From an uncultured bacterium (GTDB taxonomy: Bacteria > Zixibacteria > MSB-5A5 > GN15 > FEB-12), in NCBI GenBank assembly GCA_963821635.1, contig CAWGEP010000001.1:311601-375600 (forward strand): a stretch of 64,000 nt of DNA, read 5' to 3'. The position numbers and the translations under genes are program-made. Below the pieces are notes generated by a model, which saw nothing but the letters and a program-made list of their open reading frames with translations, had not been told where the DNA came from and ran no database searches. Shown one piece after another: positions 58 to 35,463 of this stretch (its first letter is position 1; each line of letters begins with the position of its first letter).

Positions 58-132
58 ATCGAGATTACTGCATCGAAACATAGGTAACGACCGTCAACCC
101 AAGCGTTCACCTGATCCCCGAAGGAGGGTTCC
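58..132 (+). promoter_or_regulatory. Conserved 5' leader upstream of paralog A (shared with paralog B)
   Basis: ATCGAGA ... TAGGTAACGACC ... CGTTCACCTGATCCC(C/T)GAAGGAGGGTTC(C/T)ATGTTTCGT is almost identical to 4134..4194. The coding regions have diverged much more than the leader. Confidence 0.5.
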
Positions 133-1357
133 ATGTTTCGTCGTCTCCATTTCCGCCTGACCCGGCTTGGACTCACCGTCCTGTTACTCATGTTCATTGG
201 CAGCTTTGTTCCGGCTCAAGCTTCGTATCAACTGACCATACGAGTGGCCGACACCGTCATCAGCGGGGATGCCCCCGGCGGCTGGCTTACCGTCTTTGTC
301 ACCAATCCGGTTGATTCCATTGCCGGATTTGTTATGGACCTTCAATTGGACCGATCCGGACGCCATTCGCTTCGACTCGATAATCGACACGAACGGAACG
401 GTTCTTTCCGGATTTCACTGGGTGGATGTCCGGTCCCTCTCCGGGGACTGGACCGACTTCAAGATCGTTGCTCTCGCCGACAACTTAGGGGTCGTGGACC
501 CGCGCCGGGGTTTCGGACCAAGCAGCACCGAGCAAATCTTGTTCCGAGCTCATTTTCACCAGATTCTCCCTATCCCGCCTTCCCCGGATCGCAAGGTGAT
601 CGTAACGGTTGATCCCTCGGCAATCGAGACCAACTTTGCGAGCACGGAGGGCCGGGTCATCGGCATCAAGAGACTTGAGGTCCCCGGCACGCTCTGCTTC
701 CGCTGCCTCAGTTGGAGTGGCAGCACATGCCTTGCCTATATTCCGGTGGACGCCCCTCCCTGCGACTCGACCGCCCTTGGGACCGACACGATCAGTGTCA
801 TCGATACTTCTTTAGTCAGTTATGTCGCCGGCTCGGTCACCACTCATACCAATTGCCCTCGTTCTGTTGATGACATAGACATCAACGGGGACGGCGTGCC
901 GATGACGGTGCGCGATGAGGTCACGCTGATTAAATTCGTTGATGGTGATACCAGCGGCGTCTACAATTCGAGAGCCGCCGATCTGAACGGCGACTGCATC
1001 ATTAGTTGGGCCGATATCTATCTCATGGATTCGCTCTTCAGGCGTCAAATCTATTGCAACGGCCAGCCCTGTCCTCCCCTTCCCTGTGCCTGCCGCCAGG
1101 ATTCGCTCCGAAGGGAGTGCTGCTGGGAGCGGCGGGGAAATATCAACGGAGACTTTAGTCAGACGGTCGACCTGGCCGATCTAAGCTACCTGGTGAATTA
1201 CTTGACTGTTGCCGGTACAAAACTCGGTTGCCCGGAGGAGGCCAATCTCAATGGGGTTGGAACTGTTGATATTGCGGATTTGAGTTACCTGGTGGCATTC
1301 CTCACCGGCCCCGGCGCACCACCGGTCCCCTGCCCCGGATGGACGCCGCCACAATAG
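133..1357 (+). CDS. Secreted cohesin-like / double-dockerin protein, paralog A (frameshifted near nt 358)
   Basis: Signal peptide. The N-terminal region carries the cohesin-like motifs VxVxV...GF(Q/V)xDLxxD. Dockerin type-I Ca-loop/helix repeats are present (DIDINGDGV..., DLNGDCIISWADIYLMDSL, GNINGDFSQTVDLADLSYLVNYLT, NLNGVGTVDIADLSYLVAFLTG). Conserved PPCDS and CCW..RGN Cys motifs are shared with the paralogs at 4195 and 5651. Frames 133..612 and 269..1357 join through a 1-bp indel (extra G in CCGGAC compared with paralog B CCCGAC). Confidence 0.75.
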
Positions 1358-23975: not shown

Positions 23976-24037
23976 GCGGCAGAGCCAACTCCCCCTTGGC
24001 AGGCCAGGATCTTGACATTTAATCCCGCCGGCCGCGG

Positions 24038-24487
24038 TCAGCGCCGCGGAAGTCGGAGATTGTCGTTGGAGCGCCCGACTCTGACCTCCATGGGCCGGGC
24101 ATCGGCCAGCTTGACCTCCGCATCCAGATCGGAATCATAGTAGTCACAGGTCAGTTCTTCACCGGCCTTGATATCCCGGGCGGCTATATCGGAATTGGGA
24201 CCATTGGGCCCCTCCAGAAGATTCGGATTATCGGAATGATTCACATACCGGGTGTTGTCGCCGCACAGAACCATGCAGCGAGCCCCGCTTGAATTCTCGG
24301 TGTACCCATAGTGGGCAATGTACTGCTGAACGTGAGCCGGGAATTTCCCCAGTTCCGAGACTTTGAATCGAAGATCGATCCGGGGATCGAATACCCAGAC
24401 CACCTGGCCTTCCTTGATGTCCTCTGCAGCAAAGCATCCAAGGCCTTCGATATTGCTGCGCTTAACCGTTGTCCTTACCAATAACAT
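24038..24487 (-). CDS. SET domain protein (putative protein-lysine methyltransferase)
   Basis: GCFAAEDIKEGQVV, NHSDNPN and ELTCDYY match SET-domain signatures. Confidence 0.7.
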   Translation of the reverse strand: MLLVRTTVKRSNIEGLGCFAAEDIKEGQVVWVFDPRIDLRFKVSELGKFPAHVQQYIAHYGYTENSSGARCMVLCGDNTRYVNHSDNPNLLEGPNGPNSDIAARDIKAGEELTCDYYDSDLDAEVKLADARPMEVRVGRSNDNLRLPRR

Positions 24488-24678
24488 GCGTCCTCACCCG
24501 AGCCGGCGGCTCGCGATCAATTCTGAACGTTATTTCCCTATTCGTGATTTTTCATGGAATCCGGCGCAACGGCCGGCAAACTGGGTCCACCCGGCATAAT
24601 GGATATTATACCGGGTTGGACCGGATTCGTCGATTTTAGCCCCTGGAAAAGTACTTCGTGAAAGACCATTCGCCATGT

Positions 24679-26793
24679 TCAGTCGAAAAGCATCCTGTGC
24701 AAATAGGCAAATTCCAAGGCTTGCTCTTTGGCCCGGTGGGCATTGTCGGCCGCCGCGCCGTGTCCCCCCTCGGTCTCTTCGTAATAATAAACTTTGTCCC
24801 CCAGCGCTTCCAACTTGGCCGCCGCTTTCCGCGCGTGCGCCGGGTGGACCCGGTCATCCTTGGTGGAGGTCACAAACAGAATCTTGGGATATTTGACTCC
24901 GGCCTTGATATTCTGATAGGGGGAATAGGTCGAAATGTATGCCCGCATGTCGGCCGAGTCCGGGTCCCCATATTCCCCGATCCAGGAAGCTCCCGGAGGA
25001 AGTTTGGAATATCGAAGCATGTCCAAAAGCGGCACCTGGCAGACGACCGCGTTAAACAGCTCCGGCCGCTGGGTGAAGGCGACTCCGACCAGCAGTCCGC
25101 CGTTACTCCCGCCCATGATCCCGAGATGCTTGGGGGAAGTGATCTTCCGTTTGATCAGGTCTTCCGCGACGGCAATGAAATCGTCGAATACTTTCTGCCG
25201 ATTCTTCAACAGCCCGGCGCGATGCCACCTCGGGCCAAATTCTCCGCCCCCCCGGATGTTCGCCAACACGTAGACTCCCCCCTGCTTGAGCCACAGGTTG
25301 CCGATACTGCTGGAATAGGAGGGCGTCATCGAAACCCGGAATCCTCCGTAGCCATATAGCAAGGTCGGATTGTTGCCGTCGGCAGCCAGATCAGCGCGAG
25401 CCACCACGAAATAGGGAATCATCGTCCCGTCTTTGCTCGCCGCCTCAAACTGGCTGATTTTAAGGCCGGCAGCGTCAAACCTCGCCGGAAGCGACTTGAT
25501 CTCTTCCGGCGCCGCCGCAGGATCGGTCAGGTAATAGAGCTTGGTAGGAGTCAGGAAATCCTGGAAGCTCGCCATCAGACTGTTTCCGAAGGCGTTGTAG
25601 GCCGACAGCCCAACTGTCCCCAGGTCAGGCAGCTTGAGTTCGCCGGTCGTCCATTTGGAAGCTCCGGCCGATTCGTTCAGACTCAGGTACAGGATCCGGC
25701 CCCGCACATTTCTGAGAATGGAAAGCAGCAAATAGTCTTTGGTCGCTCCGATCGACTGGACCGTGCTCTTGTCATCCGGCTCGAACAGAACTTCCACTTT
25801 GGATTTGAGATCAGCCGAGCCGAAATCCGCGGTCTTGAGCGCGACTACCGAGCCCTCGGGAATCCCCAGCCAGTCGGAGTATAGAAGGGCGACGGCATAT
25901 CCCTTGAAGAAGACATCGACGCGGGCATCTTTCGGAAACGGCATCGGTTGCAGTTTGAGCTTTTGGTCTACCAGCCAGCCGGACTGCTCCCAGAACGATG
26001 TGCTGCGATGGAGGGTAAAAGTGTTCCCCTCCGGCCGGAAATCGACCCCGCCATTGACATCGACATCCGAATTCTCCCCTTCCATAAGGGTCTGGGCCGA
26101 CGCCAATGGAGTGCCGCGTTTCCACAACTTGATAATCCGGGGATACCCCGACGATGTCAGCGAACCGGGTCCGAAATCAGTGCCGATTATTACCGTGTTG
26201 CTGTCGAACCATGAGACCGAGTTCTTGGCCTCCGGGACGGTGAATCCATCCTTCACAAATGCTTTCTGATTGTAATCATATTCTCGGACCCAGGTGGCAT
26301 CCTTGCCGCCGAGCGACAACGAGACCAATGCCCGGGAGTAGTCGGGCGGGAGAACATCGGCTCCCTGGTACACCCAGCTTTTTCCTTCGTCCTTGTTGAG
26401 CTTGTCAATATCGAGAACCACTTCCCACTGGGGAGCCGGCTTTTTGTATTCGGCTATCGTGGCCCGACGAAGGATACCGCGCGGGTGATCCTGGTCCTGC
26501 CAGAAATTGTAAATGTAGTTGCCCATCAACTGGCCGCCCGGAATGCGGTCCTTGGCGTTGAGCAGTTTGAGCGCTTCATCCTGGTATTTGATGAAATTGG
26601 GATCCTTCTGAAACTCGCTCATAGTGGCCGAGTCCTGCGTCCTGGCCCACTCCAGCGGCTTGACCCCCTCGTCCTCTTCCAGCCACAGGTACGGATCGGT
26701 GTCCGCGCCCTGCGCTGAAGCGGGGATAGGGTGAAGCCCCAGCAGCATCAGCGCTGCCAGCGCGCCGGTCAATAATCGCAATAGGAATTTCAT
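24679..26793 (-). CDS. Prolyl oligopeptidase family S9A serine peptidase
   Basis: Signal peptide. GGSNGG nucleophile elbow with a C-terminal alpha/beta hydrolase domain. 704 aa. Confidence 0.8.
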   Translation of the reverse strand: MKFLLRLLTGALAALMLLGLHPIPASAQGADTDPYLWLEEDEGVKPLEWARTQDSATMSEFQKDPNFIKYQDEALKLLNAKDRIPGGQLMGNYIYNFWQDQDHPRGILRRATIAEYKKPAPQWEVVLDIDKLNKDEGKSWVYQGADVLPPDYSRALVSLSLGGKDATWVREYDYNQKAFVKDGFTVPEAKNSVSWFDSNTVIIGTDFGPGSLTSSGYPRIIKLWKRGTPLASAQTLMEGENSDVDVNGGVDFRPEGNTFTLHRSTSFWEQSGWLVDQKLKLQPMPFPKDARVDVFFKGYAVALLYSDWLGIPEGSVVALKTADFGSADLKSKVEVLFEPDDKSTVQSIGATKDYLLLSILRNVRGRILYLSLNESAGASKWTTGELKLPDLGTVGLSAYNAFGNSLMASFQDFLTPTKLYYLTDPAAAPEEIKSLPARFDAAGLKISQFEAASKDGTMIPYFVVARADLAADGNNPTLLYGYGGFRVSMTPSYSSSIGNLWLKQGGVYVLANIRGGGEFGPRWHRAGLLKNRQKVFDDFIAVAEDLIKRKITSPKHLGIMGGSNGGLLVGVAFTQRPELFNAVVCQVPLLDMLRYSKLPPGASWIGEYGDPDSADMRAYISTYSPYQNIKAGVKYPKILFVTSTKDDRVHPAHARKAAAKLEALGDKVYYYEETEGGHGAAADNAHRAKEQALEFAYLHRMLFD

Positions 26794-27177
26794 GTTTCCA
26801 CTCCGAGCCAGCTTGATTTTGGTCCACTTGTGCGCCCCGCGGGCGATGACCCGGGAATATATAACACCGTTTTAAAAGGCCACAACTTTGAAATCGAGCG
26901 ATCCCAAATAATCCATTTCTTGAAAAAAACAGCCCCGGAGCAAAGTCGTTCCCCTGAGTCGGTGGAAAGCGGCGCGATTTATTTCGTCACCGTGGGCGGT
27001 CTGCAGGTCAGCCCAAGTCCCCCGGGCCAAAGCAGGGCAGCAGTGCCCCGGGTCAAGAACTTTTCACCTGACGCAACCTGGGGGCCGGGATTCCGTAAAC
27101 TAAAGGGACCATGTTCAAGTCACCCTGAAGTGCGCCTCGCTTTGCCGTCCGGGCGGCGGGCGGAAGGGAAGAATCAC

Positions 27178-27432
27178 ATGCGAGTGATAGCAATCGTACT
27201 CTTGATAATCTGCCTCCCGATCATTCTGATTGTGCTCGGTTCGGTCGGCCTTGGTCTCGGTTCAGCGCTGGTCGGACTGATCGCCGGAATCGGGGGAGCC
27301 ATTGTCGGCGTGGTGGCAGGACTTGCCGCCGGATTTATTGGCCTTTGTGCCGGCCTGCTCGGGCCCCTGGCTCTGATTGCCATACCGATTCTGATCATCG
27401 TCGGACTGGTCAGGCTGCTGAGCACTCGCTAG
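27178..27432 (+). CDS. Small membrane protein with glycine-zipper repeats
   Basis: RBS GAAGGGA. Two TM segments rich in GxxxG (GLGLGSALVGLIAGIGGAIVGVVAGLAAG). Confidence 0.45.
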   Translation: MRVIAIVLLIICLPIILIVLGSVGLGLGSALVGLIAGIGGAIVGVVAGLAAGFIGLCAGLLGPLALIAIPILIIVGLVRLLSTR

Positions 27433-27580
27433 CTCTTACTGTTTCTGCTTCCGAAAGCCAGTTCCAACCCCATTTGACTTGACGCTCTCTTGCGAGCGGC
27501 TTTACCTTGTCCAAAACGGAGAATTGAGTTCGGACGGGTCCAAGGGACCGGTCCGGAAAAGCGCCCACGCGCGGACAAGC

Positions 27581-28891
27581 ATGTACTGGCTGAGCAAAAG
27601 CATCCATCGGTTCAACCGGCTAAACCGCCGGTTTGTCATTTTGGCCGCCGTGATCGGGCCCGGTATCATCACGATGATCGCCGACAATGACGCCGGGGGA
27701 ATTTCCACCTACGCCGTCACCGGATCGAAATTCGGATTCAACCTGCTCTGGGTCTTTATCATTCTCATCCCGATGGCTTATTTCGTGCAGGAGATGACCG
27801 TCCGGCTGGGGGCCGTGACGAAACGCGGCCATGCCGAAGCGATTTTCGATGGCTTCGGCAAATTCTGGGGCTTCTTTTCCCTGTTCGATTTGGCCGTGGT
27901 GAACTGGCTGACGCTGATAACCGAGTACATCGGAATGACCGCCGCCATGAGTATGTTCGGCGTGCCCCCCCTGATCACGTGTATCGTGGTCACCGTAATT
28001 CTGATGGCCGTGGTTATGACCGGTCGCTACTGGACATTCGAGAAGATAACGCTCGCCTTCTGTATTTTCAACATGGTCTACATCCCGGCGGCCATCTGGG
28101 CCATGCACACCCCAACTGCGCCGGCCTGGGGCGAAGTGGCCAAAGGATTTTACAGTCCGGTCTTCCCCAAAGGTCTGACCGCCGATCTCATCTTTATTAT
28201 CATGGCCAACATCGGGACGACTATCACACCCTGGCAGATCTTCTTTCAGCAAAGCTCGGTGGTCGACAAAGGAATGGACGTTCACGATGTCGCCTACGGC
28301 AAGATTGATACCTTTGCCGGGTCGTTTCTAACCGGCGTGGTGGCCATTTTCATTATCATTTGCACCGGTGCCGCCTTCTATTACCACCAGCCCCCGATCG
28401 CGGTCGAGGATGCCACCCAGACCGCCAACGCCCTGGTGCCGCTGCTCCCCGGCGCCCAGGGTCACTGGGCCCGACTCCTCTTTGCGATCGGTCTGTTCGA
28501 TGCCGGCTTTCTCGGCGCCTTGTGTATCTCGCTGTCGACCTCGTGGGCAGTCGGCGAAGTTTTCGGCTGGGCCCACTCGCTCAACCGGACGGTCCGGGAC
28601 GCTCCCTGGTTCTATGTCATTTATCTTTTGACCCTCGTGACCGCGGGGGCGGTGGTGCTCATTCCGGGGGCTCCGCTTATCGCCATCACCATGTTTGTGC
28701 AAGTGGTCGCGGTAACCCTCTTGCCCGCCGCACTGCTGTTCCTTATTCTGCTCTTGAACGATGAGCCCCTGATGGGCCAGTACAAAAACACGCGGCTTCA
28801 GAATATCGCCAATTGGAGCATTGTCGTCTTTGTAGTAATTATGTCAACCTGTTTCGCCGTCTCGGTCTTGTTCCCGGAGTGGTTTAGTTGA
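27581..28891 (+). CDS. NRAMP-family divalent cation transporter (NrmT-like variant, DNDAGG motif)
   Basis: GPGIITMIADNDAGGISTYAVTGSKFGFNLLW resembles the NRAMP TM1 region, but DNDAGG replaces the canonical DPGN. About 11 TM segments. Confidence 0.65.
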   Translation: MYWLSKSIHRFNRLNRRFVILAAVIGPGIITMIADNDAGGISTYAVTGSKFGFNLLWVFIILIPMAYFVQEMTVRLGAVTKRGHAEAIFDGFGKFWGFFSLFDLAVVNWLTLITEYIGMTAAMSMFGVPPLITCIVVTVILMAVVMTGRYWTFEKITLAFCIFNMVYIPAAIWAMHTPTAPAWGEVAKGFYSPVFPKGLTADLIFIIMANIGTTITPWQIFFQQSSVVDKGMDVHDVAYGKIDTFAGSFLTGVVAIFIIICTGAAFYYHQPPIAVEDATQTANALVPLLPGAQGHWARLLFAIGLFDAGFLGALCISLSTSWAVGEVFGWAHSLNRTVRDAPWFYVIYLLTLVTAGAVVLIPGAPLIAITMFVQVVAVTLLPAALLFLILLLNDEPLMGQYKNTRLQNIANWSIVVFVVIMSTCFAVSVLFPEWFS

Positions 28892-28899
28892 GCTAGTCT

Positions 28900-30195
28900 A
28901 TGGGCCCATTTCGCACCAGTCCCCCCATTCTCCCTGATCCCCGCTTTACGGGACGGGACTACCGGTTCCTGTTCTTCTCGCATTTACTCGAACGGAGAGT
29001 CTGCGCCGGAAAGATCAAAGATAAGATCGGGACACTGAGCGACCTGGTGTTCCGCCTTAGCGAAGCGTATCCGGAGGCGGTCGGACTCTACCTGGAACAT
29101 GGTTGGGGGAAACCGACCGAGTTCATTCCCTGGGATAAAGTGGTCAAGATCGAGGATGACGCCATCTTCGTCCAACCCCCGCCGGAAGGGGGCGTCTATC
29201 CCCCGTTTGTCGATCAAGTCGGCTGGCTACTGCTCAACGACCACTTGATGGGGCGCACCATTCTTGATATGGATGGCCGGCAGATTGAAGTCGTCAACGA
29301 TGTTCACCTGCTGGAATCGCGCGGGCGGATGATCATCGTTCATGTCGATATCTCGTTCAACGGATTTCTTCGCAAATGGCACCTGGGCCGGCTGGCCTGG
29401 ACCAAGGATCAGCTCATCTCGTGGAAATATGTCCAGCCGTTGTCGCTGGAAGACGCCTCCACCACCGATGCCGTCACACTGTCGCTGACCCGGAGAATGG
29501 TGAAGGATCTTCCCAGCGAGGATTTGGCCGATGCCCTCGAGCAGTTGTCCGGTGAGGAACAGCAGGCATTTTTCTCGGCTCTGGACAGCGAAAGCGCCGC
29601 CGATGCCCTGGCCGAGGCCGAACCGCGGGTCCAGCGACAAATCATCGCCAATCTGCGACAGGAACGTGCCCAAACAATCCTTTCCGAACTCTCGGTCACC
29701 CAGTTGGCGGGACTGTTCTCGGTACTTCCGCGCGATCACATGTTGAATCTGATGGCCATGCTGCCCAAAGACAGTGCCGAGCGGATCTCCGCCATCCTGT
29801 CCGAACGCGAGGGGCATGCCACCTCCCTCATGTCCAGCCACTATGTCACCGCGGTCAAGACCGACCAGGTCAGCGCGATTATGAAAATACTCCGGGCCCC
29901 CGGTCGCCAACATGAGGACATTTCCTATGTCTACGTGATCAATCCGGACGATCAGTCTTTAATCGGCGTGGTCGATTTACGGGAGCTGATTCTGGCCGAT
30001 GACGGCGCCACGATCGGCAGTGTCATGACTTTTCCGGTGGTCAGTGTGGAATCCGATGACGCCCGTGAGGATATTGCCGAGTTGTTTGCCAAATATCACT
30101 ATCGCATGCTGCCGGTAGTGCAACAGGACAAGATCGTGGGTGTGGTTCATTACAATGATATTATGAAAGGCCTGGTCATGCGGGCCAAGACCTGA
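28900..30195 (+). CDS. Soluble MgtE N-domain + CBS-pair protein with N-terminal PRC-barrel-like region (no membrane domain)
   Basis: MgtE_N-like helical region (LAEAEPRVQRQIIANL...LAGLFSVLPRDHMLNLMAMLPKDSAERI) followed by tandem CBS domains. There are no TM helices. Confidence 0.6.
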   Translation: MGPFRTSPPILPDPRFTGRDYRFLFFSHLLERRVCAGKIKDKIGTLSDLVFRLSEAYPEAVGLYLEHGWGKPTEFIPWDKVVKIEDDAIFVQPPPEGGVYPPFVDQVGWLLLNDHLMGRTILDMDGRQIEVVNDVHLLESRGRMIIVHVDISFNGFLRKWHLGRLAWTKDQLISWKYVQPLSLEDASTTDAVTLSLTRRMVKDLPSEDLADALEQLSGEEQQAFFSALDSESAADALAEAEPRVQRQIIANLRQERAQTILSELSVTQLAGLFSVLPRDHMLNLMAMLPKDSAERISAILSEREGHATSLMSSHYVTAVKTDQVSAIMKILRAPGRQHEDISYVYVINPDDQSLIGVVDLRELILADDGATIGSVMTFPVVSVESDDAREDIAELFAKYHYRMLPVVQQDKIVGVVHYNDIMKGLVMRAKT

Positions 30196-30342
30196 GGATT
30201 ATCATGCCGAGGATCAAAATGACGAAATCGGCCAAGTTCGCGCTTTTTTTTCTGCGCGCCTACCTGCTGGTGATGCTCGGGTTGATTCTATTCAAGTTTC
30301 TGCAGATGTTCAAGTAGCTATTCCAATAGTCCAGGAGGGCAT

Positions 30343-30939
30343 GTGAACAATCACAAATCATTCTACATACTTGATTCTCTGGCGCGGATCCTCATCGGAA
30401 CGGCCACTTCGGTTGGAGTCGGATTCTTCCTGATCCCCGGGCATTTCGCCCTCAAACCCGGCAACGGCGCTTTTGCCTTCCTGGTATTCGGTTTCGGCTC
30501 GGCGCTCGTCTATGCCATCTTCAAGACCAAGGGAAGACGGGCCGCTATCGGAGCCGCCTTTCTAATCGGCCTTGTCTCCGCTGCGCTGTTCAATCGGTTC
30601 TTTGTCGAAATTCTCGTACTCGGCATCTCGGCCCCCATCGCTCTGGTGTTTCTCTGTGAGACTTTGACTCGCCTGCATATTACCAAACCCCGGATCGGCC
30701 GACTGATCCTCCTCGCGCCAATTTATACCATACTTGGTCTAGTCGTTTCCCCTCTCGGCGCGCTTACAAGCCAGGCAGCCGCTCACTGGACCATATTTGT
30801 GCGCAGCGCCACGCTTCAAATGTTTGGAACCGGAATTGGGTTGGGCCTCGGACTTGAAGCCGCAGAGTACGCCATCAGTTGTTGGCGCCAACGGCACTCA
30901 TCGGTCGATGATCTCGCCGGGCATGCCGGCAACCAATAG
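30343..30939 (+). CDS. Integral membrane protein of unknown function
   Basis: About 6 hydrophobic segments. No recognisable motif. Confidence 0.4.
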   Translation: MNNHKSFYILDSLARILIGTATSVGVGFFLIPGHFALKPGNGAFAFLVFGFGSALVYAIFKTKGRRAAIGAAFLIGLVSAALFNRFFVEILVLGISAPIALVFLCETLTRLHITKPRIGRLILLAPIYTILGLVVSPLGALTSQAAAHWTIFVRSATLQMFGTGIGLGLGLEAAEYAISCWRQRHSSVDDLAGHAGNQ

Positions 30940-31015
30940 CCGGAGAACCGCTCTGCTGCCAAAAGCGCATGCGGGCTTCCCTCAATCGCCCCACAATGCG
31001 CCCGGCCACGTCGGA

Positions 31016-32986
31016 CTATTTTCCGCTCTTGCTCTCCCCGGACGCTAAAGCCGGCGGCGCAAACTTGCCGGTAAGCGCCGCGGCCAATGCCTCAATCGAG
31101 TTCCCGCCCCCGGCGACAAGAATCTGCGGCATGAACGGCTGTCCCCCTTTGGACAGCGCGTTGGCTATATTGACCCACATGGTACCCTGAGCCCCCAGCG
31201 CCTGAACTTGCTTGGCATAAGCTTCGGCATTTGCCAGACCGACCGAGCGCGGCTCGGCTCCTTTTGCCAAGCCTACTTTTTCGAGATACGTGGATTCACC
31301 GTCCGCCTGCGCCTTGCGCGCTTCGGCGTTGTTCACCTGTATATCCACACCGACCTTGGAGGCGGCCAGATCCTTCTGCATATCGGCAGTGCCGCGCGCC
31401 TTTTCTACTTGGATCCGCTCATCCTGTGACGCTTTTTCCTTCTTGTAGGTCTCGATCTCCTGGTTGGCGATTTCGCGCGAGGTCAGCACTTTTACCAACT
31501 CGGCCGGGAAGACCACATCCTGAATATACACACCCTTGGTCTCAACCTGGTAGACACTCAGCTTTTCACTGATCAAGTCCATCGCTTTACTTTGTACTTC
31601 CTGACGGGTCTCAATGAAAGTCACCGCCGGCATGCTTTGGAGCTTGTCGCGGAAGTGATTTCCAACCGCGGCCTGCAGGACCTCGTTGGCCAGATTCTGC
31701 ATCGTGCCGACCATGGAGATCACCCGGGGAGCCAGCGTGTCCGGGATGTGAATTTGAACCTGCAGATCGATATTGAACACGAATCCTTCGCGCGATTTGG
31801 CGATGATCTGTTTCAGCTCCCGGTCCAAATTGTGAGCCTTGGAAGTGGCATCCGCCCAGTTGAGCGTGAGGATCGCCGTCGGCACGATTTCCGAATTGTA
31901 AATCCGCGGATTGATGGCGTACTTGCCGGTGCGAAGCGGCTCCTGCCAGACACCGCGATGACCCGGCCGCACCAGCGACCCGTACTTGAAGGAAGCCCCC
32001 GAGGTATCCTGGGTGGCCAGCCCGACATACGATTTTATGACCGCAACCTGCCCTTGCTGGACAATCAACATCGGTACTAGCTCGACTCGCACCAGAAACG
32101 GATTCAGGTTGTATGCTCCATAAAGCAGCACGTCATGTTGAAGTCCGATCTTGCCGCCGTTGTCGAGAAACAGCTGGAAGTCCTGAAAATTGTTGTGGAC
32201 GTTGTTCTTGCTTCGCAGAATATGTTCGCAAATCTCGGCGTCGGTTTTCCCCGCCGCTTCCATCTGGCGAAGATCATCAAATCCGCCAAGCCGACAGGCA
32301 ATGTCACCATCCTCGAGCGCCGGACCATCGAAGGTCGTGACAACGCCGACCACGTCGACCAGCCCCCCGGCTTCACCGTATGGTTTTGGCTCGATCCGGA
32401 CTACTTCGAGATCTTCAGGATGGATCCCAAAAGCTTTGGCCGGGACATCGGCGACATTGCGGCTGAGAATGCTCAGGATACTCGGATCGACCGGCAGCCC
32501 ATGCACCCGCTGTTTGGTAATGACCAGGAAGGCCACGGGATGAATCGGCACCAGCGTGCCGGGAGGAAGCACCGGTCGCTGGACTCCCTTCTGGCCCCCT
32601 TGATCGACAAAGACTCTGACGTCGCTGAAATTTCCAAACTGGGGTTTGTATATGGCCGACTTGGCCCCCACCGGAAGCGGCTGTCCGATTTGGGAAATCA
32701 GCACGCCGATTTCCCCCGCGGGTACCTGCACCCACGGAAATTTCTTCACGCCGTACAGAATCCAGAATTTGAACCTAATCCCGGGCATCAGTAAATCGGC
32801 CTGGTAGCCGGCCTCGCCGTGAAAACCGATTGGATTTCCGCCGGACAATTTCTTCCGCGAAAAGCGCTTGTAGACCAGTCCTACTTGCGTCTGGCCGATC
32901 GCGCGTAACGACGGTAGGATCAGGATCGCCAGGGCGATAACGGCGGCGGCGATTATGATTGGTTGCATTGAAACGGTTGGTTGCAT
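31016..32986 (-). CDS. Flotillin-family SPFH domain protein (FloT/YqiK-like)
   Basis: N-terminal TM anchor, SPFH domain and a long coiled-coil with Ala/Glu-rich repeats. 656 aa. Confidence 0.7.
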   Translation of the reverse strand: MQPTVSMQPIIIAAAVIALAILILPSLRAIGQTQVGLVYKRFSRKKLSGGNPIGFHGEAGYQADLLMPGIRFKFWILYGVKKFPWVQVPAGEIGVLISQIGQPLPVGAKSAIYKPQFGNFSDVRVFVDQGGQKGVQRPVLPPGTLVPIHPVAFLVITKQRVHGLPVDPSILSILSRNVADVPAKAFGIHPEDLEVVRIEPKPYGEAGGLVDVVGVVTTFDGPALEDGDIACRLGGFDDLRQMEAAGKTDAEICEHILRSKNNVHNNFQDFQLFLDNGGKIGLQHDVLLYGAYNLNPFLVRVELVPMLIVQQGQVAVIKSYVGLATQDTSGASFKYGSLVRPGHRGVWQEPLRTGKYAINPRIYNSEIVPTAILTLNWADATSKAHNLDRELKQIIAKSREGFVFNIDLQVQIHIPDTLAPRVISMVGTMQNLANEVLQAAVGNHFRDKLQSMPAVTFIETRQEVQSKAMDLISEKLSVYQVETKGVYIQDVVFPAELVKVLTSREIANQEIETYKKEKASQDERIQVEKARGTADMQKDLAASKVGVDIQVNNAEARKAQADGESTYLEKVGLAKGAEPRSVGLANAEAYAKQVQALGAQGTMWVNIANALSKGGQPFMPQILVAGGGNSIEALAAALTGKFAPPALASGESKSGK

Positions 32987-33511
32987 ACAGCCTCTCTGGA
33001 CACTGCTTTCATTCGAAGAACAAATGTCGGACTTTCGAACTCCCGGGAACGGTGGGAACTATACCTATTTGCGACCTTTGTGTCAACGTTGGTTGGGGGA
33101 AGGCGGCGGAGTGTGATACAATTGGAAAACTCTCGAGATGGCCGCGATAACCAAATCCTCGCACTTTTGGGCTATGAGTGCGCCAAGCCAAAGAGTGATG
33201 ACATCATCAGCGGGGAACTGGGCTACATTTCGAACTATCGTTACAAGTTGATGATGAAGTGGCTCTCTCACCCGACAAGGAACAAGCCGGGCCCTAGTCC
33301 GATGGAAAGCGATTAGCTGCTATGCGCGCGGGCAGGCGTCATCGTTTGCAGGAAAGCCGGTATCCGAATTTGGTGGCTTGAGGCACATGTCACCAATCCA
33401 GCCTTCCCCTCAAAGGCAGGAACGCGGGGCTCTTAGCGTGTCTCTCATTACCTCACCACGTCTCGCAAAGTGGTCCGATACGCTGCTCTTTCTGCAAGGA
33501 TGCAGCTTGCC

Positions 33512-35463
33512 TTATCGCTTCATCGCCCGGATTGAGGCGGCGCGTTTCTCAAGTTCCTCGGCTGCATTCGTTCGATTGGTCTTCCTATAGAGTTTTGCCA
33601 TGTCTTCAAGGCTAGTAGCCACATCGGGATGAGTCGGACCCAAAGCTTGTTCCCGGATCGCCAGAGAGCGCTTAAGCAATTCCTCAGCTTGCACGTACTG
33701 CTTCTGAATGTAGTACAGCTCACCGAGGTTGTTGAGAGTCTCCGCCACATCGGGATGATTAGGACCTAAGGCTCTCTCCCTTATTGTCAGGGCGCGCCTG
33801 CTGAGCAGCTCGGCTTTCGCATATTGGGCTGTTGAATTGTACACCTCCGCCAGACCGTTTAGGGCCGAAGCGACGCTTGGATGATTCGGGCCGTAGGCCC
33901 TTTCGTCATTGGTCAACGCGTGCGTATAGAGTGACTCGGCCTTTTGATACTGGCCTTCCTTGTAGCGCATTTTCGCAATACTGCACTCAAGCCTAGCCAC
34001 TTCGGGATTGTCTTGTCCGAACGCCTTTTCATTGATCGCTATCGACCGCATGTACAACGGTTCGGCTTGCGCGTACAGGCCTTGGTCGAGGTATAGCTTC
34101 CCGAGGCCGGCCAGGCTTGGTACTTCATCAGGATGATCAGGACCGAGAGATTTCTCGAAAATTGACACAGAGCGTTTGTACAACGGCTCAGCCAGCGCAT
34201 ATTGGCCCTGAGTGCGGTACAAGGTTGCCAGGTTACTGAGACTGTGGCCACCGCAGGATGGTTAGGCCCCAGAGCTCTCTCGTCTATGCTCAGAGCGGTC
34301 TTGAACAGCGGCTCCGCCAGTGTATACTTCCCTAGATTGTAATAGAGGCCAGCGAGGCTGCTGCGACTTGCGGCCACGTTGGGATGATTGGGGCCAAACG
34401 ACTTTTCCACAATCGTTAGTGCGCGTTTCAAAAGCGGTTGGACAAGAGAGTACTGGCCTTGGTACGTGTACAGCCCTGCAAGGTTATTGAGACTCGCGGC
34501 CACATAAGGATGATCCGGACCGAGAGACTTTTCTCTGATTTCCAGCGCACGCTTGTAGAGTGGCTCGGCCTGCGCATAGTGGTCTTGGATTTGGTACACG
34601 CTTGCGAGATCATTGAGACACCCAGCCACATCAGGGTGGTCCGGGCCAAGGGTCTTTTCTCGGATCTTTAGACAGCGACTAAGGAGTGGCTCAGCTTCCG
34701 CGTATCGGGCTTCAGCAACATAAAGGGTCGCAATGTTATTGAGGCTTTGGGCGACGTCTGGGTGATCCGGTCCAAACGCCTTCTCCCTGATTTCCAGCGA
34801 TCGCTTAAGGAGCGGCTCAGCCTGCGAATAATGACCTTGAGAGTAATATAGAGTGGCGACGTCGTTGAGACTCGTAGCTAATTCGGGGTGATTCGGGCCA
34901 AGAGACTTTTCCCGAATTGCGATAGCACGCTTGTAAAGCGGTTCAGCCTGACTGAACTGGCTTTGGGAGTTGTACAAGTCCGCCAAGTTGTTTAGACTTG
35001 TAGCCAAGTCAGGATTCTCTGGACCGAGGGTCTTCTCTTTGATTCCTATCGACCGTTTGTAGAGTGGCTCAGCCTGTGCGTACTGTCCTTGTGCCCGATA
35101 CACCTCCGCGAGGTTGTTGAGATCCGTTGAAACATCAGGACTGTCGGAGCCGTATGCCTTTTCATCCATTCCCAAGGCGCGCTGAAAGATTGATTCTGCC
35201 TGAGCGTATTTTCCTGTGGCGAAATACAACCCGCCCAGAATGTTAAGGCTCGTCACCACTCTGGAACTATCTGCCCCCGTGCTCTGCTCGGCCGTCTGCA
35301 ACGCATTCTGCGCCACGACAAGAGCGCTGTCATAGCGCCCTTGTCTGTACAGAGTTGTTGCCTCATCATTGAGCGTCTTCCAATCGCCTCCTTGAGCTCG
35401 AACAGCCTGATACGCTCCAAGCCCAAGCACAACTACGAGCAGGGATCTCAAAATTCCTATCAT
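33512..35463 (-). CDS. Secreted tetratricopeptide-repeat protein (TPR_12-type repeats), frameshifted near 34243
   Basis: Signal peptide. At least 14 repeats of the form LNNLA.LY..QG.Y..AEPL..R.L.I.EK.LG..HP.VA. The ORFs 34039..35568 and 33512..34222 are joined by a 1-bp deletion in a TT run. Confidence 0.7.

Follow-up and report, generated by a model that had tools for sequence, protein, structure and literature searches.

We analysed a 64,000-nucleotide stretch of DNA, here called the window, from an uncultured bacterium of the Zixibacteria lineage (NCBI GenBank assembly GCA_963821635.1, contig CAWGEP010000001.1, positions 311,601 to 375,600 of the forward strand). Between positions 27178 and 30317 the window holds four consecutive open reading frames (ORFs) on the plus strand, encoding a short Gly-zipper protein, a transporter of the NRAMP fold, a soluble protein resembling the cytosolic part of the MgtE channel, and a single-pass membrane protein of 37 residues, which we call the micro-protein (Table 1). 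We consider it rather likely that the last three genes make up a module, belonging to the NRMT branch of the NRAMP/SLC11 family, for the uptake of divalent cations; it would consist of a transporter, a sensor acting in trans and a helix subunit. Homology, sequence motifs, synteny, gene fusion and the logic of membrane topology support this reading, and from them we infer the substrate, the direction of regulation and the physical contacts.

Layout of the locus

The three genes of the putative module are closely spaced. Gaps of 8 nucleotides separate the stop codon of the transporter gene from the start of the sensor gene on the same strand, and the stop codon of the sensor gene from the ATG of the micro-protein gene, whose GAGGA Shine–Dalgarno sequence overlaps the sensor stop codon. 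The NRAMP-like ORF as listed begins with a TTG and spans 27479–28891. The 120 best homologues, however, are all 404–467 residues long, mostly 436–440, and their alignments begin at the Met encoded at 27581, so that the real start is almost certainly the ATG at this position, giving a protein of 436 residues. The RNA fold of the 148-nucleotide leader was no better than that of shuffled sequences (z = −0.95), and a promoter and terminator scan returned only consensus noise within coding sequence.

Table 1 Coordinates of genes, domains and motifs at the locus (window numbering; aa, amino acids; nt, nucleotides; TM, transmembrane helix)
Feature	Position	Strand	Basis
84-aa Gly-zipper ORF	27178–27432	+	ORF call; glycine-rich, highly hydrophobic, GxxxG repeats
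Leader/intergenic region, 148 nt, 5′ of the transporter gene	27433–27580	+	No riboswitch recognized in Rfam scan
NRMT-clade NRAMP-fold transporter gene, 436 aa	27581–28891	+	Pfam Nramp, EleNRMT (7qia) match, motifs
Transporter TM1 motif DNDAGG	27683–27700	+	Motif
Transporter TM1 metal site, D37-A-G-G40	27689–27700	+	Motif
Transporter TM6 motif TTITPW	28217–28234	+	Motif
Transporter TM6 metal site, T213-T-I-T216	28217–28228	+	Motif
Soluble PRC + MgtE_N + CBS-pair regulator (sensor) gene, 431 aa, pore-less	28900–30195	+	Pfam, 2yvy
Sensor PRC barrel, aa 26–96	28975–29187	+	E = 2.6e-9
Sensor β/linker region, aa ~109–200		+	
Sensor MgtE_N helical domain, aa 205–301	29512–29802	+	E = 8e-17
Sensor CBS pair, aa ~306–425	29815–30174	+	E = 5e-17
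Single-pass micro-protein gene, 37 aa, MPRIKMTKSAKFALFFLRAYLLVMLGLILFKFLQMFK	30204–30317	+	Core hidden Markov model, LRxYL signature
198-aa multi-pass membrane ORF, GTG start	30343–30939	+	25 nt past the micro-protein gene
SPFH/Band_7 protein, 656 aa	31016–32986	−	Opposite strand, after the 198-aa ORF

An NRMT-type member of the NRAMP family

The transporter matched the Pfam family Nramp (PF01566) over model positions 1–356 of 357 (E = 1.4e-75). The nearest solved structure in the PDB was EleNRMT (7qia; E = 4e-66, 227 bits, ~36% identity), with canonical Nramps reaching at most 68 bits, at 23% identity. The protein also fell short of both MntH cut-offs of NCBIfam (NF001923, 116.6 bits against 430; TIGR01197, 58 bits against 272). 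In a neighbour-joining tree of the window protein, EleNRMT, DraNramp, BfraNramp and 29 database representatives, it was placed in the EleNRMT superclade, far from the canonical Nramps.

The metal site tells the same story. The DAGG of TM1 aligns with the DPGN of DraNramp and BfraNramp and with the DAGG of EleNRMT, and the TTITPW of TM6 aligns with the canonical A-x-x-M-P-H; relative to the canonical site, the Asp is kept, with Gly in place of Asn and Thr in place of both Ala and Met. The NDAGG motif, the TM6 Thr, a Gln retained in α10 and 11 transmembrane helices (predicted by homology) are all common to EleNRMT and the window transporter, and the two differ at TM6 in having TTIA and TTIT, respectively. 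The signature of NRMTs is DxxG–TxxA/T, and EleNRMT, which carries Mn2+ as well as Mg2+, needs its first TM6 Thr (T224) for Mg2+ (Ramanadane et al. 2022, PMC8806188). The counterpart of T224 in the window transporter is T213, and the Met responsible for a preference for soft transition metals is not there. Motif, PDB scores and tree together support placing the protein on the NRMT side of PF01566 and not with canonical MntH. This bears out the preliminary description of this DNA, made from the sequence alone, which had proposed an NRMT-like protein; clustering with MntH and full DPGN and MPH motifs, the pattern it had named as contrary, were looked for and do not apply here. EleNRMT (Eggerthella lenta; eLife, PMC8806188) is the one NRMT studied both structurally and functionally, and that work dealt with the transporter by itself, without accessory proteins.

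A pore-less MgtE-like sensor with a PRC barrel

Directly downstream lies the pore-less MgtE_N/CBS protein that had been recognized in the preliminary description, and the domain matches uphold that assignment (Table 1), with the addition of an N-terminal PRC barrel that had been missed. Pfam returned no match to membrane or pore domains, the C-terminus comes six residues past the CBS pair, and the five-helix pore and plug helix of MgtE are not in the protein. Consistent with this, the MgtE model TIGR00400 matched over positions 23–249 of 450 only (116 bits, cut-off 233). In the PDB the match, both by sequence (E = 1e-24) and, as the best Foldseek match (E = 2.6e-17), for an AlphaFold2 model of the sensor, was 2yvy, the cytosolic domain of MgtE. 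That model (mean predicted local distance difference test score (pLDDT) 70) has the PRC barrel at residues 20–110, a less confident β region to ~151, a low-confidence linker at 161–201, the helical N domain at 198–303 and the CBS pair at 305–423. All 120 of the best database homologues share the PRC–MgtE_N–CBS architecture.

Compared with the MgtE channel of T. thermophilus (2yvx/2yvy), the N domain and the CBS pair are therefore homologous, whereas the plug helix and transmembrane pore are gone and a PRC barrel has been added N-terminally. Regulation by the sensor would act in trans, and on an unrelated LeuT-fold carrier.

Transporter and sensor genes travel together

We scanned one genome per species with the TM6 pattern, which yielded 79 loci, and scored their gene content by tblastn and by domain hidden Markov models (HMMs) made from sensor homologues. 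The loci sort into four classes. In class A, the type of the window (11 loci, with transporters 60% identical or more), the order is transporter, PRC–MgtE_N–CBS gene, micro-protein gene; it includes an archaeal Bathyarchaeia locus (L014). In class B (22 loci, 51–59% identical), which includes Methanoregulaceae, Methanothrix, Nitrososphaerota and Thermoplasmata, the micro-protein gene lies between transporter and sensor. Class C (12 loci, ~41% identical; Acidobacteriaceae, Mucilaginibacter and others) has the transporter followed by the micro-protein. Class D (~29 loci; Actinomycetota, Dormibacteria, Ktedonobacteria) has a PRC–MgtE_N–CBS gene upstream in 23, followed by a longer transporter. 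Class A and class B sensors have the PRC barrel, as do almost all class D sensors, with no PRC match in L051 and L052.

An adjacent sensor gene was present in 56 of the 79 loci and in all 33 loci of classes A and B, that is, wherever the transporter is at least 51% identical to that of the window. In these 33, bacterial and archaeal alike, the sensor gene always follows the transporter gene in the same direction. Overall, 53 of the 56 pairs are on the same strand, and the two genes are separated by at most the micro-protein gene, or by a few hundred bases where the sensor gene is upstream. Chance adjacency would have to account for the pair persisting through changes of gene order between clades and across bacteria and archaea, while the remaining flanking genes vary from locus to locus, and we regard it as extremely improbable. 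Synteny this strict makes it very likely that sensor and transporter are functionally linked; the synteny of the CBS protein in related genomes, on which the preliminary description had made its proposal depend, thus holds.

Transporter–sensor fusions of the Rosetta-stone kind were sought and rejected: ten homologues of 510–562 residues hold the Nramp domain only, and in the long homologues of the type seen at the genome loci the extra length consists of a spacer helix and a micro-protein domain. Two further features of the loci may be recorded. The class A transporter is 75–92% identical among database matches assigned by source name to Acidobacteriota, Phycisphaerae, Ignavibacteriales, Bacteroidota, Syntrophorhabdales and Sumerlaeota, and this unusually high conservation suggests that the module is under strong constraint or has been transferred horizontally. 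Seven loci (L055, L058, L063, L068, L075, L080 and L083) have two NRMT genes, adjacent or separated by a few kilobases (kb), usually both with a fused micro-protein domain and accompanied by a single sensor gene; L083 combines one fused and one unfused system.

The pairing itself is known. Shin et al. (2014; PLoS Genet, PMC4072509) reported that most NrmT/Nramp-outgroup genes adjoin a gene for an MgtE cytoplasmic domain and speculated that the fragment provides 'cytoplasmic feedback regulation of transport'. The preliminary description had supposed a split sensor gating an NRAMP-like protein to be an undescribed arrangement; on that point it was mistaken, and the locus falls within a previously described type of operon, an NRMT with a pore-less MgtE sensor. 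The examples of Shin et al. (C. acetobutylicum Ca_c0685/Ca_c3329 and A. capsulatum Acp2976–Acp2977) share the type of pair and the regulatory hypothesis, but their sensor genes lie upstream of the transporter and some members stand behind M-box riboswitches; the window has its sensor gene downstream and is free of an M-box. The window is thus a variant, with a downstream sensor gene, a PRC barrel, degenerate Mg2+ sites and a 37-residue third component. The PRC barrel and the third gene go unmentioned in the 2014 paper. The barrel on the MgtE-like fragment appears to be new, as does the combination, in the window sensor, of largely retained ATP contacts with just two of six Mg2+ ligands. Further discussion of the fragment is missing from Ramanadane et al. 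2022, Cellier's 2022 phylogeny and a 2026 review of bacterial Mg2+ transporters, and none of these three, nor Shin et al., mentions an ORF of the micro-protein type or a PRC barrel.

A 37-residue membrane protein as a probable third component

The micro-protein has a basic N-terminus, an L-R-x-Y-L signature and one transmembrane helix. Its core aligns without gaps across the family, L17 and Y20 being invariant and R18 and L21 nearly so. An HMM built on the 37-residue core of free-standing copies only gave 82 matches among 12,070 six-frame ORFs, spread over 76 of the 83 sources, among them 72 of the 79 genomes scanned, and every one of the 82 adjoins or sits within an NRMT gene. Of the seven loci without a match, three are on contigs that stop at the transporter gene or right behind it, and four (L047, L053, L074 and L082) have transporter ORFs of 544–551 residues with a similar C-terminal helix that scores below threshold. 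The gene occurs after the sensor gene, between transporter and sensor, or directly after the transporter. A cultured bacterium, [Acidovorax] ebreus, carries it too, in a locus that reads Nramp (fused), OprB, Nramp, micro-protein, sensor, a 78-residue protein and MgtC. In a large protein database, searched with forms longer than the 37-column core, the family comprises 1,463 clusters at E ≤ 1e-3, all named 'hypothetical protein' and free of Pfam domains, and no Pfam or NCBIfam model matches any form of the micro-protein. The micro-protein is apparently a widely conserved third component that had not previously been described.

In about 26 loci, the Actinomycetota of class D among them, the micro-protein domain is fused in frame to the C-terminus of the NRMT. 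The class D fusions run from TM11 through an extra hydrophobic helix (TM12), a basic stretch (RSRRSP...) and a linker of ~35 residues to the micro-domain helix. Because TM11 ends outside the cell, the spacer helix would return the chain to the cytoplasm, and the micro-domain would then enter the membrane with its N-terminus inside, which is the orientation predicted from the basic N-terminus of the free 37-residue form. Such a spacer is hard to explain, on these topological grounds, unless the helix must sit in one orientation beside the transporter. An AlphaFold2 model of a natural fusion (P0260, 562 residues; predicted TM-score 0.79) gives the terminal helix a pLDDT of ~79–85, and superposition of the core of the model on EleNRMT gives a TM-score, normalised to the target, of 0.85. 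Since class C has the micro-protein without a sensor, the primary partner of the helix would be the transporter.

The closest analogues are MgtS, MgtU and MgtR, which have ~30–40 residues and one transmembrane helix and are encoded with or bound to their transporters; MAP17 of the LeuT-fold carriers SGLT1/2 is likewise a single-pass subunit. The likeness is one of analogy only, as the micro-protein is unrelated to these in sequence (no family matches), and it differs in its much broader distribution and, in one phylum, in its covalent fusion to the transporter. By that analogy the micro-protein could control the stability or proteolysis of the transporter and have nothing to do with docking a sensor. 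Single-pass peptides that bind and stabilize or destabilize Mg2+ transporters are established for MgtA and MgtB (2026 review), and the 12 loci that pair the micro-protein with a transporter and no sensor fit such a role. MgtS-type peptides, however, are narrowly distributed and separately regulated, whereas the micro-protein is constitutively in the operon across phyla and in archaea, and covalently fused in Actinomycetota. A permanent structural helix therefore fits better than a conditional regulator, and we think an MgtS-like function unlikely.

Other genes around the module

The preliminary description had named the 84-residue Gly-zipper ORF as the small membrane protein flanking the transporter; the conserved small membrane protein is the 37-residue one, which lies just beyond the span it had flagged (27178–30195). 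A Gly-zipper membrane partner would accord with the position of the ORF, which shares the strand of the transporter gene and ends 148 nucleotides before it, and with its being called as a gene in a public assembly of the same genome. Set against this, it has no homologue in 82 related loci (the 79 scanned and 3 others) and is missing even beside module genes 83–92% identical to those of the window, where the 5′ position is taken by CorA, a tRNA synthetase gene or a divergent gene; its exact sequence is also missing from a collection of 15 billion proteins, and it matched nothing in Pfam or NCBIfam. Lacking a homologue at any related locus, the ORF was ruled out as a partner, a role we now regard as very unlikely. 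It is particular to this genome and could be a lineage-specific small membrane protein, or no gene at all.

The 198-residue membrane ORF downstream of the micro-protein gene belongs to no family and has no homologue in the related loci, and it too was ruled out as a partner of the module.

Points against the module, and the question of its substrate and signal

Several observations weigh against reading the locus as a Mg2+ uptake module of three parts. No sensor gene lies within 6 kb in any of the 12 class C loci, so the sensor is dispensable in some lineages, and two loci sampled from the EleNRMT-proximal subclade have no copy of the micro-protein; the latter may not be universal to all NRMTs. 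With the A. capsulatum pair, rescue by the transporter was complete for a Mn2+ defect but weak for a Mg2+ defect, and co-expressing the MgtE fragment made no difference (PMC4072509). An Rfam scan of positions 24000–34000 found no family, the M-box included, even at E ≤ 1, in agreement with the preliminary description, to whose eye no M-box had been obvious, and an M-box was found in just two of 47 related loci scanned (L006 and L040). Finally, the residues expected to sense Mg2+ are largely lost. The cytosolic Mg2+ ligands of TthMgtE are D91 and D247 (Mg4), D226 and D250 (Mg5), D95 (Mg6) and E59 (Mg7). When these were placed on 53 sensors by an alignment at 22–28% identity, E59, D91, D95, D226, D247 and D250 fell on D235, T267, G271, H400, D420 and K423 of the window sensor, which thus keeps just two of the six (D235 and D420). 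Nine of the 11 class A sensors have His for D226 and Lys for D250.

Some of these observations would suit a module that imports mainly Mn2+ or another transition metal, with the MgtE-like protein responding to a signal other than Mg2+. Shin et al. concluded as much for the A. capsulatum pair, in which the outgroup protein Acp2977 gave the full rescue of the Mn2+ transport defect and the weak rescue of the Mg2+ defect. EleNRMT transports Mn2+ too. The window is free of the M-box, control by which was the 2014 criterion for Mg2+-specific members (PMC4072509); the Mg2+ ligand D226 has given way to a near-invariant His in the subclade of the window; and one of the two M-box loci (L006, a deltaproteobacterial metagenome-assembled genome (MAG) with a transporter 72% identical) has a heavy-metal-associated HMA_2 gene before the transporter.

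The transporter nevertheless keeps the TM6 Thr for Mg2+ (T213) and has no soft-metal Met, and its relatives have neighbours that indicate magnesium. In L006 an M-box (RF00380, 4774–4950, 129 bits) lies upstream of the module, in the order M-box, HMA_2 gene, transporter, sensor, micro-protein; in L040, a Bryobacterales MAG, another (RF00380, 5337–5513, 108 bits) lies directly upstream of a transporter–micro-protein pair. CorA abuts the module in the two closest Acidobacteriota loci (L091, 5589–6557; L092, 2589–3503), and MgtC lies downstream of it in the Acidovorax ebreus-type locus L083 (6754–7470). The NRMT site together with M-box, CorA and MgtC in relatives therefore links the module to magnesium, and we judge a mainly transition-metal importer to be improbable, though by no means negligible.

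What the sensor reads is a separate matter. The preliminary description had labelled it Mg2+-sensing; the homology to MgtE stands, and with two of six ligands kept the label is insecure for the window sensor. In MgtE the CBS pair also contacts ATP, through Y170, R187, D188, N203 and F227. Y170, R187, D188 and F227 correspond to Y343, R361, E362 and Y401 of the window sensor, kept or conservatively replaced, and these four contacts are kept in the sensors of classes A and B. The sensors of class D (Actinomycetota) show the reverse, with five of six Mg2+ ligands kept and the ATP contacts lost. This reciprocal conservation suggests a split, with sensing weighted towards nucleotide in the class of the window and towards Mg2+ in Actinomycetota. 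Taken further, the CBS pair might read energy state or adenine nucleotides (ATP, ADP or Mg-ATP) and so tie cation uptake to energy: of the five ATP contacts made by side chains, class A and class B sensors preserve four, either unchanged or as conservative replacements, and have lost most Mg2+ ligands. The mapping, however, comes from an alignment at 22–28% identity, the adenine contact N203 is not kept (T377 in the window sensor), and in MgtE ATP modulates Mg2+ sensing and does not substitute for it. We regard a sensor of energy state as a possibility, though a somewhat doubtful one.

A model for the module and its implications

For the three-gene uptake module that we favour, the parts suggest the following arrangement. 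By homology to EleNRMT, the transporter would most likely import hydrated Mg2+, and also Mn2+, without proton coupling. Such an uncoupled carrier would need a cytoplasmic brake, as MgtE and CorA do. The PRC–MgtE_N–CBS protein would be that brake in trans, a free-standing MgtE gate and sensor with a PRC-barrel docking domain that stands in for the covalent plug-helix link; most likely it would bind the cytoplasmic face of the transporter and lower uptake in a replete cell. In the subclade of the window, adenine nucleotide (Mg-ATP) may serve as the signal no less than free Mg2+. The 37-residue helix, its N-terminus in the cytoplasm, would be a detachable extra transmembrane helix and a permanent structural subunit of the transporter, and through its short basic N-terminus it may serve as a membrane anchor or docking site for the regulator. 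In its most specific form, which we put forward only tentatively, the micro-protein would be an obligatory third subunit of the NRMT–sensor complex and would recruit the PRC barrel of the MgtE-like gate through its own cytoplasmic N-terminus.

If this is so, omission of the micro-protein could explain the lack of regulation in the earlier two-gene co-expression, and the module would be a prokaryotic example of a LeuT-fold metal carrier that has a single-pass auxiliary subunit and whose gating depends on a separate protein, the sensor domain of a channel. Clades of the sensor may differ in whether they read Mg2+ or adenine nucleotide. More than 1,400 clusters of small proteins that current annotation leaves as 'hypothetical' form the family flagged here. 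The role of the MgtE-like fragment beside NRMT genes has been a standing question since 2014, and a micro-protein that travels with or is fused to NRMTs, together with the PRC barrel on the sensor, makes that question experimentally concrete.

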